DNA of 64,000 bases from Syntrophales bacterium (GTDB lineage Bacteria; Desulfobacterota; Syntrophia; Syntrophales; UBA2185), in contig JBEKXK010000001.1 of the NCBI GenBank assembly GCA_049512055.1, positions 28,680-92,679 on the forward strand, given 5' to 3'. This document shows positions 816 through 29,169 of this stretch, in pieces (positions within the stretch are counted from its first letter, which is position 1; each line of letters starts with the position of its first letter). Both the position numbers and the translations under genes were made by a program. The notes under the pieces are model-generated. The model was not told the origin of the DNA. It searched no databases and saw only the letters and a list, made by a program, of their open reading frames with translations.

Positions 816-2465
816 ATGCACTCCGAATTTATGCAGAAAGCTTTATTGACTAAGAAAGAAAAATCCGTGACAAGTATCAGGTCTATCATGTCTCGTGCAG
901 TTAGAAATGCATACGGGAATGGCGAAGATGATGAGACATTCCCTCCCCTCGTTTTGTTTGATCGCAAAGATCGACCGGCGGGAAGATTGAAAAAAGGAGA
1001 TGCCGTAATATACTATAACATCCGGGGAGAAAGGGAAGTCGAACTTACCCAGAGCCTGACGGACGTAGGCTTCGACAAATTTCCAGTGGAGAATGACCTT
1101 GTTCTTCATTTTGCCACGATGATAGAATACCAAAAGGATTTGAGGGTTCATGTTGCCTTTCCGCCGGAGGGCGCCATCAAAGACACCCTAAGCGAAGTCA
1201 TTGCAAGACATGACCTGAAACAGGCCAAGATTACAGAGTCTGAAAAGGCGAGTCACGTAGGCTTCTTCCTCAACGGGAAAAACGCAGAAGTCCTGCAGGG
1301 AGAAGAGAGGGTCATCGTTCCGTCTCGAAGAGATGTCATCCTCTTTGACGAAGCTCCTGAGATGTCCATCTATGCCGTCACGGAAAAAGCCAAGGAAAAA
1401 ATTCGTGATCCTTCTTATCATTTTATTTTCATAAACTTCCCCAATGTCGATGTGGTGGGCCACATAGAAAATGAAGAAGCCATCGTTAAGGCGGTCGAAG
1501 CCGTGGATGCATGCATGGGCGATATTATCGCCGAGGCTTCAAGAGAAGGGATGGTCGCCATAGTCAGTTCCGACCACGGTACAGTTGAAAAATGGCTCTA
1601 TCCGGATGGCACCATCGACACGGGACATACAGACAGCCATGTCCCCTTCATTCTCGTGTACAATGATCGCGACATATCTCTCCGCGAGGAAGGAGAGCTT
1701 GCAGACATTGCCCCTACTGTTCTCGAGCTGATGGGCATTCCCCAATCGACGTACATGACGGGGCGTTCACTAATAAAAAGCGCATCCCGGCGACGCATCG
1801 ATCCATCCCGGGAACAACCACAACGGGTCCTGCTTTTGATTCTCGACGGCTGGGGCGAAAACAAAAGCAGCGAGGGAAATCTGATAGCCCGCGCCAACAC
1901 CCCCGCCATGGACAGGCTCAAGAAAATGTACCCTCATACGCTGCTTGCCGCCGCCGGTGAAGCGGTCGGCCTTTCCGAAGGAACGGTCGGAAACTCCGAG
2001 GCCGGACACCTCCACATCGGGTCGGGGAGAAGAATCTTATCCGACAAGGTGAGGATCGATCAATCCATTGCCGATAGATCTTTTTTTCACAATGAGGCTT
2101 TTCTGCATGTCATTCGTAACGCCAAAGATAGAGGCAAAGCTCTACACCTTATGGGTATCGTATCGTTCTTCAGTTCCCATGGATCTGTCAATCATCTTCT
2201 TGCCCTGATGGATATCGCGAAGCAGGAGAAAATAAGGGATGTTTTTATTCATGCCATGCTCGGCAGGCGCGGAGAAATTCAGGAGAGTGGGGCCAAGTAT
2301 ATAGAGATAGTGGAGAAGAAATGTAGGAAGCTCAATCTCGGAAAGGTAGTCTCAGTCATAGGAAGGCATTGGTCCATGGACAGGGAGGAAAACTGGAGCA
2401 GAATCGAAAAGGCATATCGGATGCTCGTCTACGGGGAGGGAACCACCGTTACCGAAAGGAGTTGA
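816..2465 (+). CDS. gpmI: 2,3-bisphosphoglycerate-independent phosphoglycerate mutase homologue with circularly permuted domain order
   Basis: All iPGM hallmark boxes are present but in swapped order. 'NGEDDETF', 'ESEKASHVGFFLNGK', 'NFPNVDVVGH', 'SDHGT', 'GHTDSHVP' and 'ADIAPTVLELMG' come first. After a linker come 'LLILDGWG', 'GNSEAGH' and 'GRHWSMDREENWSRIEKAY'. The start could also be ATG 831 or 888. Confidence 0.8.
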   Translation: MHSEFMQKALLTKKEKSVTSIRSIMSRAVRNAYGNGEDDETFPPLVLFDRKDRPAGRLKKGDAVIYYNIRGEREVELTQSLTDVGFDKFPVENDLVLHFATMIEYQKDLRVHVAFPPEGAIKDTLSEVIARHDLKQAKITESEKASHVGFFLNGKNAEVLQGEERVIVPSRRDVILFDEAPEMSIYAVTEKAKEKIRDPSYHFIFINFPNVDVVGHIENEEAIVKAVEAVDACMGDIIAEASREGMVAIVSSDHGTVEKWLYPDGTIDTGHTDSHVPFILVYNDRDISLREEGELADIAPTVLELMGIPQSTYMTGRSLIKSASRRRIDPSREQPQRVLLLILDGWGENKSSEGNLIARANTPAMDRLKKMYPHTLLAAAGEAVGLSEGTVGNSEAGHLHIGSGRRILSDKVRIDQSIADRSFFHNEAFLHVIRNAKDRGKALHLMGIVSFFSSHGSVNHLLALMDIAKQEKIRDVFIHAMLGRRGEIQESGAKYIEIVEKKCRKLNLGKVVSVIGRHWSMDREENWSRIEKAYRMLVYGEGTTVTERS

Positions 2466-2468
2466 ATC

Positions 2469-2999
2469 ATGGAAGTGAGGATTAACAATTCGATATTATC
2501 CCTCGTCGAAGGAGACATAACACGAGAGGAAACAGACGCAATCGTCAATGCTGCTAATTCGAGACTCGCGGGAGGTGGAGGCGTAGATGGCGCCATACAT
2601 CGGGCGGGCGGACCGTCCATCATGCAGGAGTGTCGAAAAATCGGAGGATGTCCCACAGGACAGGCGGTTATCACCACTGCGGGGAATCTCAAGGCAAAAT
2701 ATGTCATCCACGCCGTGGGACCCGTTTACCAGGGCGGCACAAAAGGTGAAGCAGCACTCCTAAAGAACACCCATCTGGAGAGTCTCAAGCTCGTTTCAGC
2801 AAAGAAGCTCAAGAGCGTCGCCTTCCCGGCCATCAGCACCGGCGTCTATGGCTATCCTGTGGACGAAGCCGCGCACATTGCCCTCACAACAGTCATAGAT
2901 TATCTCAAAGAACACGGCGATATTGAGCTGGTTCGTTTCGTTCTTTTTGGTCGCAAGACATACGAAATCTTTGCGGAGGAACTGAGAAAAATCACATAG
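2469..2999 (+). CDS. macro-domain protein (O-acetyl-ADP-ribose deacetylase / ADP-ribose-binding, YmdB-like)
   Basis: Canonical macro-domain boxes 'GDITREETDAIVNAANSRLAGGGGVDGAIHRAGGP', 'VIHAVGP' and 'AFPAISTGVYGYP'. Starts 4 nt after the preceding stop. Confidence 0.85.
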   Translation: MEVRINNSILSLVEGDITREETDAIVNAANSRLAGGGGVDGAIHRAGGPSIMQECRKIGGCPTGQAVITTAGNLKAKYVIHAVGPVYQGGTKGEAALLKNTHLESLKLVSAKKLKSVAFPAISTGVYGYPVDEAAHIALTTVIDYLKEHGDIELVRFVLFGRKTYEIFAEELRKIT

Positions 3000-3569: not shown

Positions 3570-4317
3570 AAAGGGAGTCCATCGCTTCCGTATATTGGCC
3601 ATCCTCGGAATATACTGTCAGTGGCGGCAAGACTTCCAGCTCCTCCCGCCCATTTTTTACCCCCTCCACCAGGACAAACTCCCCGCGGGATGCGGTATGT
3701 GAATGCACTATTCTCAGTCTCTTGGGCTCCATACCGGCCGTTCTCATGGAAGAGAGAAGCCCTACCATCCTAGTCGCCGGATATATGATATAGACGCGTC
3801 CTGATTTTTTTAAGAGATATGTCGATGCTTTCAAAAAATCGTGCAGCGATGCTTTGATCTCGTGCCGTGCCACGGACTTCTCGGCATTGGGATTTAGTTT
3901 TCCGGAACTTACTCTTCTATAAGGAGGGTTAAGAATTGAAACATCAAAAGATCCCGGTTTAAAGAGGGTCTCGATTTTTCTGACATCTCCATGGCTGATA
4001 TTAACCTTCTCCTGAAGATCATTCAGCATGACGCTTCTTGTCGCCATGTCAACAAGTTCTTCCTGAATATCAACACCTGCGACTTTATAGCATTCTTTTC
4101 TCTGCGCTACGATGATGGCAATCACGCCGCTGCCGGTTCCGAGATCGGCAATCAGGTCTCCCTTTCTCACTCGCACAAAATGAGCTAAGAGAAGGGCATC
4201 GACAGAAAACCGGTACCCCTTCTTTTTTTGAAAGATCTTCACCCGTCTGCCAAGAAGTTCATCGACGGTTTCTCCTTCCCTTCTTAGCTTTGAGACTCGG
4301 GAAACATTCTTTTTCAT
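3529..4317 (-). CDS. class-I SAM-dependent N6-adenine methyltransferase, TrmN6/YfiC-like (tRNA m6A37 type)
   Basis: Motif I 'LIADLGTGSGVIAI' and the N6-adenine box 'ILNPPYRR'. Size is ~260 aa. The ATG overlaps the upstream stop (ATGA at 4314-4317). Confidence 0.7.
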   Translation of the reverse strand: MKKNVSRVSKLRREGETVDELLGRRVKIFQKKKGYRFSVDALLLAHFVRVRKGDLIADLGTGSGVIAIIVAQRKECYKVAGVDIQEELVDMATRSVMLNDLQEKVNISHGDVRKIETLFKPGSFDVSILNPPYRRVSSGKLNPNAEKSVARHEIKASLHDFLKASTYLLKKSGRVYIIYPATRMVGLLSSMRTAGMEPKRLRIVHSHTASRGEFVLVEGVKNGREELEVLPPLTVYSEDGQYTEAMDSLFRELCCLPKASAE

Positions 4318-5558
4318 GATGTGAGGAGATGAATAAATATGCCGCTGCGAAGTTTTGGTTCAAACCAGGTGGATTTTGGAGGCATGACTTTGCCGGCATC
4401 TGACACGTCCATTAGTTGTTCCATACTTGTCGGATACAGAGAAAAGGCAACGGCAAATTCACCTGAATCTACCAGCCTCTCTAACTCTTGCACCCCTCTT
4501 ATGCCGCCTATATATTCTATCCTTTCATCCGTCCGGGGATTCTGGATCCCCAGGACAGGCTTCAATAGATTTTCCTGAAGAATCGAGACATCAAGTATCT
4601 TAATGGGATCATCTTTATCATAGCTATTATCCTTCGCAGTCAGCTTGTACCACCTGCCGCGCAGATACATCCCGATTTCGTGGCACTGGGACGGCGACTT
4701 CGGTGCAAAATTTTCGGATACAAGAAATTGGCCACGAACCTGACGAAGAACTTCGGCCTCATCCAGGCCGCGCAAGTCTGTCACCGCCCGATTGTAGCTC
4801 ATGATCTCGAGTTGATTATGCGGAAACAGAACAGCCATCACATAGTCGTATGCCTGATCCCTGCCGCTTCCAGGAGTTCTTTCCCTCTTCAGTCTCCTCA
4901 CCGCTGCGGCGGCAGCAGCACGGTGGTGGCCATCAGCTATGTAGAGGGTATGCACATCAGCAAATGCTTTTGTTAAAGCTGCAACGTCTTTTTCGGCATT
5001 TATAACCCATACGGTATGAGAAATGCCGTCATCGGCAACAAAATCATACTCGGGCTTACTCTCGACCATTCTTTTGACCATCCGGTCGATGGGATCCTGG
5101 GCTCTGTATGTCACAAATACCGGTCCTGTCTGGGCATCTACTGCCATGACATGCCTGATACGATCATGTTCCTTATCTGCTTTTGTAAGCTCATGTTTCC
5201 TGACTTGGCCCGATTCATATTCAGCGAGGCTGATCGCACCAACTATGCCGTACTGCGCGTGGGCGCCGGTTTTCTGCCTGTATATATAAAAGCAATTATT
5301 TTTCTCCTGAAATAAGATGTTCCTTTCGATCAGCTTATCAAGATTTGCTTTCGCGATCTCATATTGACTCTCATCATTTGCTCCTGCCGAATCTTGCACA
5401 TCGATTTCCGATTTTTCCACATGCAAGAAATTCAGGGGATTGTCTTTAACAATCTCTCTTGCCTCTGCCACGTTCACCACATCATAGGGGTAAGAGGCCA
5501 CGGCCTTGACAAATTGTCTATGTGGCCTCAGCGCCTTAAAAGGAATGACAACAGACAT
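4314..5558 (-). CDS. DUF1015 family protein
   Basis: N-terminal 'VIPFKALRP' and the 'YIADGHHRAAAA' box are typical of DUF1015. Start moved from the ORF-track 5639 to ATG 5558, which has GAGGAG 8 nt upstream. Confidence 0.75.
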   Translation of the reverse strand: MSVVIPFKALRPHRQFVKAVASYPYDVVNVAEAREIVKDNPLNFLHVEKSEIDVQDSAGANDESQYEIAKANLDKLIERNILFQEKNNCFYIYRQKTGAHAQYGIVGAISLAEYESGQVRKHELTKADKEHDRIRHVMAVDAQTGPVFVTYRAQDPIDRMVKRMVESKPEYDFVADDGISHTVWVINAEKDVAALTKAFADVHTLYIADGHHRAAAAAAVRRLKRERTPGSGRDQAYDYVMAVLFPHNQLEIMSYNRAVTDLRGLDEAEVLRQVRGQFLVSENFAPKSPSQCHEIGMYLRGRWYKLTAKDNSYDKDDPIKILDVSILQENLLKPVLGIQNPRTDERIEYIGGIRGVQELERLVDSGEFAVAFSLYPTSMEQLMDVSDAGKVMPPKSTWFEPKLRSGIFIHLLTS

Positions 5559-5686
5559 AACAGAATCTCCTCTTGCGAAATTTCTAACATACTGACATAT
5601 TGAAATCAATTCAAAAGCGCCATCGGGGCACCGCTCCATTTCGCTCTGGAGATAGAGATCAGGGAATGTTGGACAGAGGAGTTTAC

Positions 5687-28371: not shown

Positions 28372-29169
28372 CTATTCATCCAATGAAACCGGAAAAAAAT
28401 GCGTTATCAACCTGTATCCTGTTCCAGTGCTGCATGAAGTTCTTATGGCCTTGGTTATATAGGCTTTTGCCCCTTCTACTGCTTTAGCCACGCTCTCACC
28501 TTTCGCCAACAGGGTAGCAATGGCCGCGGAAAAAGTGCACCCTGTGCCGTGCGTTTCCATCTTATCAATCCTCTTGGAGGAATATCGGCGAAATTTCTTG
28601 CCATCATAGAGGATATCTATAGCATCGCCTGTCAGATGTCCTCCTTTAATCACCACATTCTTCGCACCAAAGCCGTAAATTACCTTCGCAGCCTCTTTCA
28701 TGTCGGACGTAGAGGTTATTTGCATTTCAGCTAAGACCTCTGCCTCAGGTATATTCGGCGTCACGACAAAGGCCAGTGGAAGCAATTCTCTTATCAATGC
28801 ATCCCTTGCCTCGCCTCTGATCAATGTCTCCCCTCCCTTGGCCGCCATTACCGGATCGACGACGACCTTTTCAATGCCGTATTTCATGATCATGCCCGCT
28901 GCTGTCCTTAATATCCCGGTGTTCGTCAGCATCCCCGTTTTAGCAGCATCAACGCCCACATCGGCCATGACAGATTCAAACTGCTTCTCCACAAATTCAG
29001 GCGAGATCTCATAAACATCTTGGATGCCAAAGGTATTCTGAGCGGTGAGGGCTGTTATAACGCTCATCCCGAAACCGCCTAATGACATGATTGTCTTCAG
29101 ATCTGCCTGTATCCCTGCGCCACCGCAGGAATCCGAACCGGCGATGGTTAAAACCCGGACTAACTTCAT
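28372..29169 (-). CDS. thiD: hydroxymethylpyrimidine/phosphomethylpyrimidine kinase
   Basis: 'IAGSDSCGGAGIQADLKT', 'VVDPVM' and 'THGTGCTFSAAIA'. Confidence 0.9.
   Translation of the reverse strand: MKLVRVLTIAGSDSCGGAGIQADLKTIMSLGGFGMSVITALTAQNTFGIQDVYEISPEFVEKQFESVMADVGVDAAKTGMLTNTGILRTAAGMIMKYGIEKVVVDPVMAAKGGETLIRGEARDALIRELLPLAFVVTPNIPEAEVLAEMQITSTSDMKEAAKVIYGFGAKNVVIKGGHLTGDAIDILYDGKKFRRYSSKRIDKMETHGTGCTFSAAIATLLAKGESVAKAVEGAKAYITKAIRTSCSTGTGYRLITHFFPVSLDE

Follow-up and report, generated by a model that had tools for sequence, protein, structure and literature searches.

A stretch of 64,000 nucleotides from a Syntrophales bacterium (positions 28,680 to 92,679 of contig JBEKXK010000001.1, assembly GCA_049512055.1), referred to here as the window, carries near its start a gene for a protein of the cofactor-independent phosphoglycerate mutase (iPGM) family in which the two blocks of the enzyme stand in swapped order, followed directly by a gene for a macro-domain protein (Table 1). 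The iPGM gene is a single uninterrupted open reading frame (ORF) of 549 codons plus a stop. When the protein was compared by phmmer with the sequences of the Protein Data Bank (PDB), its residues 337-545 matched residues 5-213 of 1EJJ, the Geobacillus stearothermophilus iPGM (i-Evalue 1.2e-52), and its residues 28-320 matched 1EJJ residues 219-509 (i-Evalue 5.4e-58). The match of the whole protein to 1EJJ had an E value of 4.9e-113, and the swapped two-block match lies far beyond chance level. Profile searches gave the same order. The Pfam domain Metalloenzyme (PF01676; residues 115-309) precedes iPGM_N (PF06415; 414-544), and the iPGM family hidden Markov model TIGR01307 matches in two stretches, the best of which pairs residues 25-320 with profile positions 213-504. 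With 472.7 bits against a cut-off of 330.65, the protein belongs to the family as this model defines it, while its blocks depart from the canonical colinear order of phosphatase N-terminal part, transferase insert and phosphatase C-terminal part. An initial annotation of this DNA had proposed a natural circular permutation with new termini inside the transferase domain, based on an ORF, a set of motifs and a linker that are all present as it gave them. The alignments bear this proposal out, yielding both the two off-diagonal blocks and the domain order that it led one to expect. These matches indicate that the protein is a true circular permutant of iPGM, cut at approximately residue 214-218 of 1EJJ, within the transferase domain, and that a new peptide bridges the ancestral C- and N-termini.

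Table 1. Features of the permuted iPGM gene and the adjoining macro-domain gene, in window coordinates. Residue numbers count from the ATG at 816; 1EJJ (canonical) numbering is given as such or in parentheses.
Feature	Coordinates	Strand	Details	Basis
ORF as called	816..2465	+	circularly permuted iPGM-family protein	Pfam, TIGRFAM, phmmer
Likely start codon	870..872	+	GTG; 531-residue product	in-frame stops in relatives, conserved start position, pLDDT < 50 at residues 1-20
Transferase segment T2, now N-terminal	897..1169	+	residues 28 to ~118, canonical 219 to ~310; holds R70, R73 (R261, R264)	1EJJ alignment
Phosphatase segment P2	1170..1775	+	residues ~119-320, canonical ~311-509; holds K144, D212, H216, D253, H254, H271 (K336, D403, H407, D444, H445, H462)	Pfam, 1EJJ alignment
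Linker	1776..1823	+	residues 321-336, KSASRRRIDPSREQPQ; ancestral C-terminus to ancestral N-terminus	1EJJ alignment
Phosphatase segment P1	1824..2039	+	residues 337-408, canonical 5-76; holds D344 (D12), GNSEAGH with nucleophile S394 (S62), H398 (H66)	1EJJ alignment
Transferase segment T1, now C-terminal	2040..2450	+	residues 409-545, canonical 77-213; holds H455 (H123), R485 (R153), R517, R523 (R185, R191)	Pfam, 1EJJ alignment
Motif SFFSSHG	2163..2183	+	residues 450-456, in place of canonical SDGGVHS	invariant in family alignment; 80/80 genomes
Motif MLGRRGE	2256..2276	+	residues 481-487, in place of canonical FLDGRD	80/80 genomes
Shine-Dalgarno-like AAAGGAG for the macro gene	2455..2461	+	within the 3' end of the iPGM ORF	read from sequence
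Macro-domain gene	2469..2999	+	O-acetyl-ADP-ribose deacetylase type	PF01661 3.1e-45; NF001664 218.9 bits, cut-off 200

The permuted gene is widespread among relatives of this bacterium. When one genome per GTDB species was scanned, a confirmed relative turned up in 164; the best 80 of these were fetched and form the basis of all counts out of 80 given here. All 80 are Syntrophales, from the Syntrophaceae and Smithellaceae among others. The complete chromosome of Syntrophus buswellii DM-2 and several closed chromosomes assembled from metagenomes are included, and each genome carries a full-length, colinear permuted gene (60-90% identity). In a collection of 5.8 billion proteins, the best 120 hits were 522-567 residues long and colinear with the window protein over 89-100% of its length, at 61-91% identity; orthologues in Syntrophus aciditrophicus SB (ABC77850.1, UniProt Q2LUU2) and S. 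gentianae are among them. The linker, which has 16 residues in the window protein and no conserved columns in the family alignment, varies between 9 and 20 residues in the 80 genomes by one fixed measure, with the junction in frame in every case. Such a variable, unconserved stretch would be the behavior expected of a connecting peptide. Natural circular permutants of other enzymes keep the fold, have their new termini within a surface loop and bridge the old ones by a linker that varies. The initial annotation had raised the concern of misassembly, and an assembly chimera or a frameshift fusion of adjacent iPGM fragments confined to this contig would produce a swapped order. This explanation is almost certainly wrong, given that at least 80 independent species-level genomes, closed chromosomes among them, and hundreds of metagenome contigs share this order and breakpoint. 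The distribution of the gene indicates vertical inheritance, with the permuted form as the standard form in the order Syntrophales. No description of a circular permutation of phosphoglycerate mutase or iPGM was found in the literature searched, including by protein accessions, and the permuted enzyme is apparently undescribed. The initial annotation likewise knew of no earlier description; the sequences themselves are already public in databases, where they are annotated inconsistently.

The predicted fold of the permuted protein is iPGM-like, and the prediction is confident. An AlphaFold2 prediction made from a family alignment of 31 sequences, without templates, gave a mean predicted local distance difference test score (pLDDT) of 79.9, a predicted template modeling score (pTM) of 0.80 and the expected secondary-structure elements. 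Low confidence was confined to residues 1-20 and to residues 324-331 of the linker, both with pLDDT below 50, and to a few active-site loops. The 22 best Foldseek matches in the PDB (E < 1e-9) were all iPGMs; the aligner being sequential, approximately 300 columns, or one block, were aligned at template modeling (TM) scores of 0.47-0.50. The best fits were to 1O98, 1O99 and 1EJJ, which are closed structures with bound substrate (root-mean-square deviation 3.5 A over 300 columns), compared to 7-9 A for open apo structures. In canonical iPGM the transferase domain, approximately residues 77-310, is inserted as one unbroken unit into the phosphatase domain, which it splits. The permuted chain would have an unbroken phosphatase domain (P2, linker, P1) and a transferase domain divided between the N-terminal T2 and the C-terminal T1. 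We placed the boundary of T2 from these canonical limits together with the 1EJJ alignment.

Translation of the permuted gene probably begins at the GTG at 870 rather than at the ATG at 816. In several close relatives (L001, L005, L006 and others), in-frame stops interrupt the stretch ahead of the residues MSRAVR that matches window positions 816-890, and the start position common to most relatives lies eight codons ahead of the "MS" of MSRAVR, which aligns with the GTG. For these two reasons we doubt the upstream ATG. The first 18 or so codons of the ORF as called are probably untranslated, and the 531-residue product would be typical of a family in which most members have 522-540 residues. 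A likeness between KSVTSIRS near the N-terminus and GTTVTERS near the C-terminus had been put forward in the initial annotation as what a tandem duplication with later trimming of the ends would leave. We reject such a relic: the local score of 13 was matched by 1654 of 5000 shuffles (p ~0.33), the likeness is absent in close relatives, and most of the N-terminal stretch concerned is probably untranslated.

The permuted family retains most of the active site of iPGM. Invariant in the family alignment are D344, S394 and H398 (D12, S62 and H66 in 1EJJ); D212, H216, D253, H254, H271 and K144 (D403, H407, D444, H445, H462 and K336); and R70, R73, H455, R485, R517 and R523 (R261, R264, H123, R153, R185 and R191). 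Six of these, H123, R185, R191, R261, R264 and K336 in 1EJJ numbering, are substrate-binding residues in canonical iPGM. The two-metal ligands and the Ser nucleophile (1EJJ D12, S62, D403, H407, D444, H445 and H462) are complete, in agreement with the intact metal and Ser boxes reported initially, and the same list of ligands has been confirmed for the Caenorhabditis elegans enzyme (PMC5382265).

The pocket is nevertheless changed at other positions. Of 65 columns conserved to at least 93% among 132 canonical representatives, the window protein retains 58. In the LDGRD box, whose residues D151, G152, R153 and D154 are 95-99% conserved in the canonical representatives, D151 is replaced by G483, G152 by R484 and D154 by G486, and R153 alone is kept (R485); the altered reading MLGRRG, already pointed out in the initial annotation, is confirmed by both the 1EJJ alignment and the conservation analysis. 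The remaining changes are D263 to E72, a conserved Thr to G149, the conserved Gly after H407 to E218, and N447 to T256. MLGRRGE and SFFSSHG occur throughout the 80 genomes and DHGT occurs in 78 of them, and this near-universality marks them as selected features rather than decay. One interpretation of the loss of the LDGRD box, and of a score below the cut-off of the equivalog model NF003897, is that the protein is a catalytically dead pseudoenzyme with a structural or regulatory role. We consider this very improbable: over 60-90% sequence divergence there is no change in any metal ligand, in the Ser nucleophile or in the Lys and Arg residues that bind phosphate, as is typical of an active enzyme.

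Comparison with known enzymes places the permuted protein closest to the canonical GpmI/GpmM type (TIGR01307; PDB 1EJJ, 1O98, 2IFY and 4MY4), to which it is approximately 38-42% identical over both blocks. The two have in common the two-metal site, the Ser nucleophile, the Lys and Arg residues that bind phosphate and carboxylate and, as predicted, the two-domain fold and the two hinges. They differ in that the window protein has the permuted order and reads MLGRRGE for LDGRD, SFFSSHG for SDGGVHS, DHGT for DHGN and RGER for RxDR. The archaeal-type iPGM ApgM (TIGR00306, PF10143) and the phosphopentomutase DeoB share the metal core of the alkaline phosphatase superfamily and give weak matches at approximately residues 185-320, but only this phosphatase core matches (E ~1e-10); these enzymes have another inserted domain and no such permutation.

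The permutation extends beyond Syntrophales. Following the recommendation to look for orthologues of the same order, we searched 1.84 billion cluster representatives (50% identity) exhaustively with HMMER and classified the best 150. The whole Syntrophales family falls into one 50% cluster, represented by P0142 at 52% identity, and the same order and breakpoint were found in nine more full-length clusters (P0144, P0147, P0150, P0152, P0162, P0184, P0188, P0190 and P0242), of which P0188 includes a protein of Candidatus Desulfofervidus auxilii. The other 135 of the 150 representatives are canonical in order. Neighbor-joining trees were built from sequences cut back to the canonical order, with Kimura and gamma-Poisson distances, for 147 and 178 taxa. 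In these trees the Syntrophales family forms a clan with P0142, P0147, P0162, P0184, P0188, P0190 and P0242 (bootstrap 98/100 with 147 taxa and 100/100 with 178), and P0144, P0150 and P0152 fall outside it. A clan of all permuted forms appeared in 0-2 of 100 bootstrap replicates, with deep nodes poorly supported. A single origin of all permuted forms was thus never recovered in the trees, whose weak deep nodes establish neither single nor multiple origins. The group of P0150 is small: its only permuted relatives are 75-85% identical to it, and its next relatives are canonical iPGMs at approximately 50% identity. On these sequence comparisons, it is possible that the permutation arose more than once.

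The permuted forms outside the clan are conservative ones. P0150, P0152 and P0144, which come from metagenomes, share the order and breakpoint of the window protein and average 44-46% identity to canonical iPGMs, compared to 38% for the window protein. All 65 canonical columns, LDGRD and SDxGVHS among them, are retained in P0150 and P0152, and only two or three are lost in P0144. The permutation by itself therefore needs no changed pocket. In addition, at locus L084 (4556-6004 and 6001-7626) the P0150 gene overlaps by 4 nucleotides the end of pgi, the gene for glucose-6-phosphate isomerase, which is a glycolytic context for a permuted form. The permutation is compatible with a fully canonical active site. 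The clan, by contrast, carries a signature of its own consisting of GNSEAGH, xxSSHG and RGER. Its members other than the Syntrophales family also replace D154; in the clusters examined, with one exception, Gly or Ser stands in its place.

In the window, the stop codon of the permuted gene (2463-2465) and the ATG of the macro gene (2469) are separated by 3 nucleotides, and no terminator-like site was found between the two genes on the forward strand. The macro gene is probably co-transcribed with the permuted iPGM gene, and the short gap together with the Shine-Dalgarno-like site inside the iPGM ORF indicates that it is translationally coupled to it. The macro gene lies directly downstream of the permuted gene in 75 of the 80 Syntrophales genomes, where the gap ranges from a few to approximately 150 nucleotides, and insertions pile up on the far side of the macro gene, before dciA, rather than within the pair. 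Adjacency to a macro gene was rejected as a trait of the clan as a whole, being absent at P0188, P0190/P0317, P0184, P0242, P0162 and P0142/P0296.

Other genes near the locus are also conserved in Syntrophales. Divergent from the permuted gene is an ORF of 136 residues on the reverse strand (255-665) that has no Pfam or NCBIfam match and lies upstream of the permuted gene in 72 of the 80 genomes. A DUF1015 protein of 441 residues (4314-5639, reverse strand; E 5e-103), for which there is no NCBIfam name, is found near the locus in many Syntrophales genomes. The remaining genes of the window are those of an ordinary Syntrophales chromosome, such as rnc, era, der, ileS, a branched-chain amino-acid ABC transporter and a beta-oxidation cluster. 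Between 42920 and 54272 lies a cluster for the degradation of fatty acids or aromatic acids, encoding an ADP-forming acyl-CoA synthetase-like protein, three acyl-CoA dehydrogenases, an AMP-forming ligase and a thiolase, which is consistent with a syntrophic degrader. No RNA genes were found within the window.

The loci of other permuted members differ from that of Syntrophales. Those of P0317, P0184 and P0242 contain an ABC transporter, with a GDPD gene at P0317 and P0242 and a LysR regulator at P0184 and P0242. The transporters are Afu/Ugp-like and share their loci with distant permuted iPGM-like genes in L089/L090 (6001-7578), L091 (6001-7572), L092 (6001-7548 and 13522 onward) and L093; their parts are a binding protein (L089/L090 and L091), a fused permease of 549-618 residues and an ATPase. 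The GDPD gene is in L089/L090 and L092/L093 and the LysR regulator in L091 and L092/L093, and the P0242 locus (L092) holds two permuted copies. These transporter loci suggest a role in the use of imported organophosphates. In L094 (66-4873), the P0162 gene has a HAD hydrolase gene on one side and an archaeal-type apgM gene on the other; together with the genes that come next, for a PRK-family kinase, a LacI regulator and KduI, this looks like a catabolic cluster for sugar acids or phosphosugars. At P0188 (contigs L081-L083; 1-5044, 5001-6572), the permuted gene overlaps by 44 nucleotides the end of an ORF of 2142-2401 residues that contains a PPDK_N domain (phosphoenolpyruvate/pyruvate-binding) and faint kinase-like matches.

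Taking this evidence together, we favor the reading that the permuted protein of Syntrophales is a working mutase that interconverts 3- and 2-phosphoglycerate with a remodeled glycerate pocket, which we hold to be probable though well short of certain. The chain would run from transferase part 2 through hinge 2 to phosphatase part 2, and from there through the new 16-residue linker to phosphatase part 1, hinge 1 and transferase part 1. Because both inter-domain hinges are kept in this arrangement, the open/closed two-domain mechanism could run as usual. Phosphoryl transfer would proceed through phospho-Ser394, and interconversion of the two phosphoglycerates is most likely retained and would serve gluconeogenesis in syntrophs that degrade fatty acids and aromatic acids. 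The invariant changes MLGRRGE, SFFSSHG, DHGT and RGER would shift the way in which the glycerate moiety is held and would not abolish the reaction.

Several observations weigh against this reading. The window protein departs from canonical iPGMs at seven near-invariant residues, the LDGRD box with them, and D154, a contact of glycerate, is a Gly. The protein scores 383.3 bits with NF003897, for which the cut-off is 862. Failure of the permuted order to satisfy this model is the likely reason that current RefSeq/PGAP records name members of this ortholog group (P0014, P0015, P0019, P0122 and others) "alkaline phosphatase family protein"; JGI and older GenBank records of the group use "2,3-bisphosphoglycerate-independent phosphoglycerate mutase". 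The tightly linked partner gene encodes a macro-domain ADP-ribose hydrolase, no other glycolytic genes were found within the 64-kb window, and no glycolytic genes accompany the clan members elsewhere, three of which have an ABC transporter in their loci. No experimental papers on any permuted member were found in the literature searched. Furthermore, other enzymes could provide the mutase activity. According to TBLASTN data of Foster et al. 2010 (PMC2964296), S. aciditrophicus SB lacks a dPGM and has a single E. coli-type iPGM locus along with three iPGM homologues of the Pyrococcus (archaeal) type; nothing is said there of a permutation. We infer that the single E. coli-type locus is the permuted gene, which speaks for the mutase reading, whereas the archaeal-type homologues could supply the mutase activity in its place. 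The permuted enzyme may thus be the housekeeping gluconeogenic mutase, or it may have been freed to diverge by archaeal-type paralogues that cover this role.

Alternatively, the clan may have been neofunctionalized, applying the phospho-Ser two-metal chemistry, whether as mutase or as phosphatase, to some phosphoester besides phosphoglycerate, together with the probably co-transcribed macro protein in Syntrophales and to imported organophosphates in other clan members. A different specificity, which the initial annotation had considered, is a reasonable suggestion that the pocket changes of the family and the gene neighborhoods strengthen. The strong bootstrap support of the clan, its own signature with D154 replaced nearly throughout, and the fixation of MLGRRGE, SFFSSHG and DHGT, which suggests selection for a different pocket, are all in keeping with this possibility. 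So are the close association with the macro gene, the transporter, GDPD and LysR genes beside P0317, P0184 and P0242, the position of P0162 between a HAD hydrolase and an apgM-type gene, and the three archaeal-type iPGMs of S. aciditrophicus that could cover the glycolytic role. However, most of the phosphoglycerate-binding residues (both Arg pairs, the Lys, His123 and Arg153) are invariant, and no direct evidence points to an alternative substrate. Gene order is broadly conserved in Syntrophales, and adjacency to the macro gene may be mere inherited synteny. An Afu-like ABC transporter would suit the uptake of phosphoglycerate as well. We therefore regard a new substrate as possible yet rather unlikely. 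Still more doubtful is a fuller version, in which the permuted clan is a distinct, non-glycolytic family derived from iPGM with a remodeled glycerate pocket, the Syntrophales branch forms a two-gene module with the macro hydrolase that acts on an ADP-ribose-derived or other non-glycolytic phosphoester, and a permutation at the same loop of the transferase domain arose separately in the P0150 and P0152 lineages.

iPGM is a glycolytic enzyme and a target for anti-parasite and antibacterial drugs, and its mechanism requires that two domains close on the substrate. The permuted protein, with its predicted continuous phosphatase and split transferase, is a natural variant in which the influence of chain connectivity on folding and on domain closure could readily be tested. 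The inconsistent annotation of the permuted gene matters when the metabolism of syntrophs that degrade fatty acids and benzoate, and that need gluconeogenesis, is reconstructed. A new substrate of the clan, if there is one, would represent a fresh activity in the alkaline phosphatase superfamily. The sequences analyzed here thus point to a natural circular permutation in a classic glycolytic enzyme that is conserved across a bacterial order, with an active-site signature of its own and a macro-domain partner.

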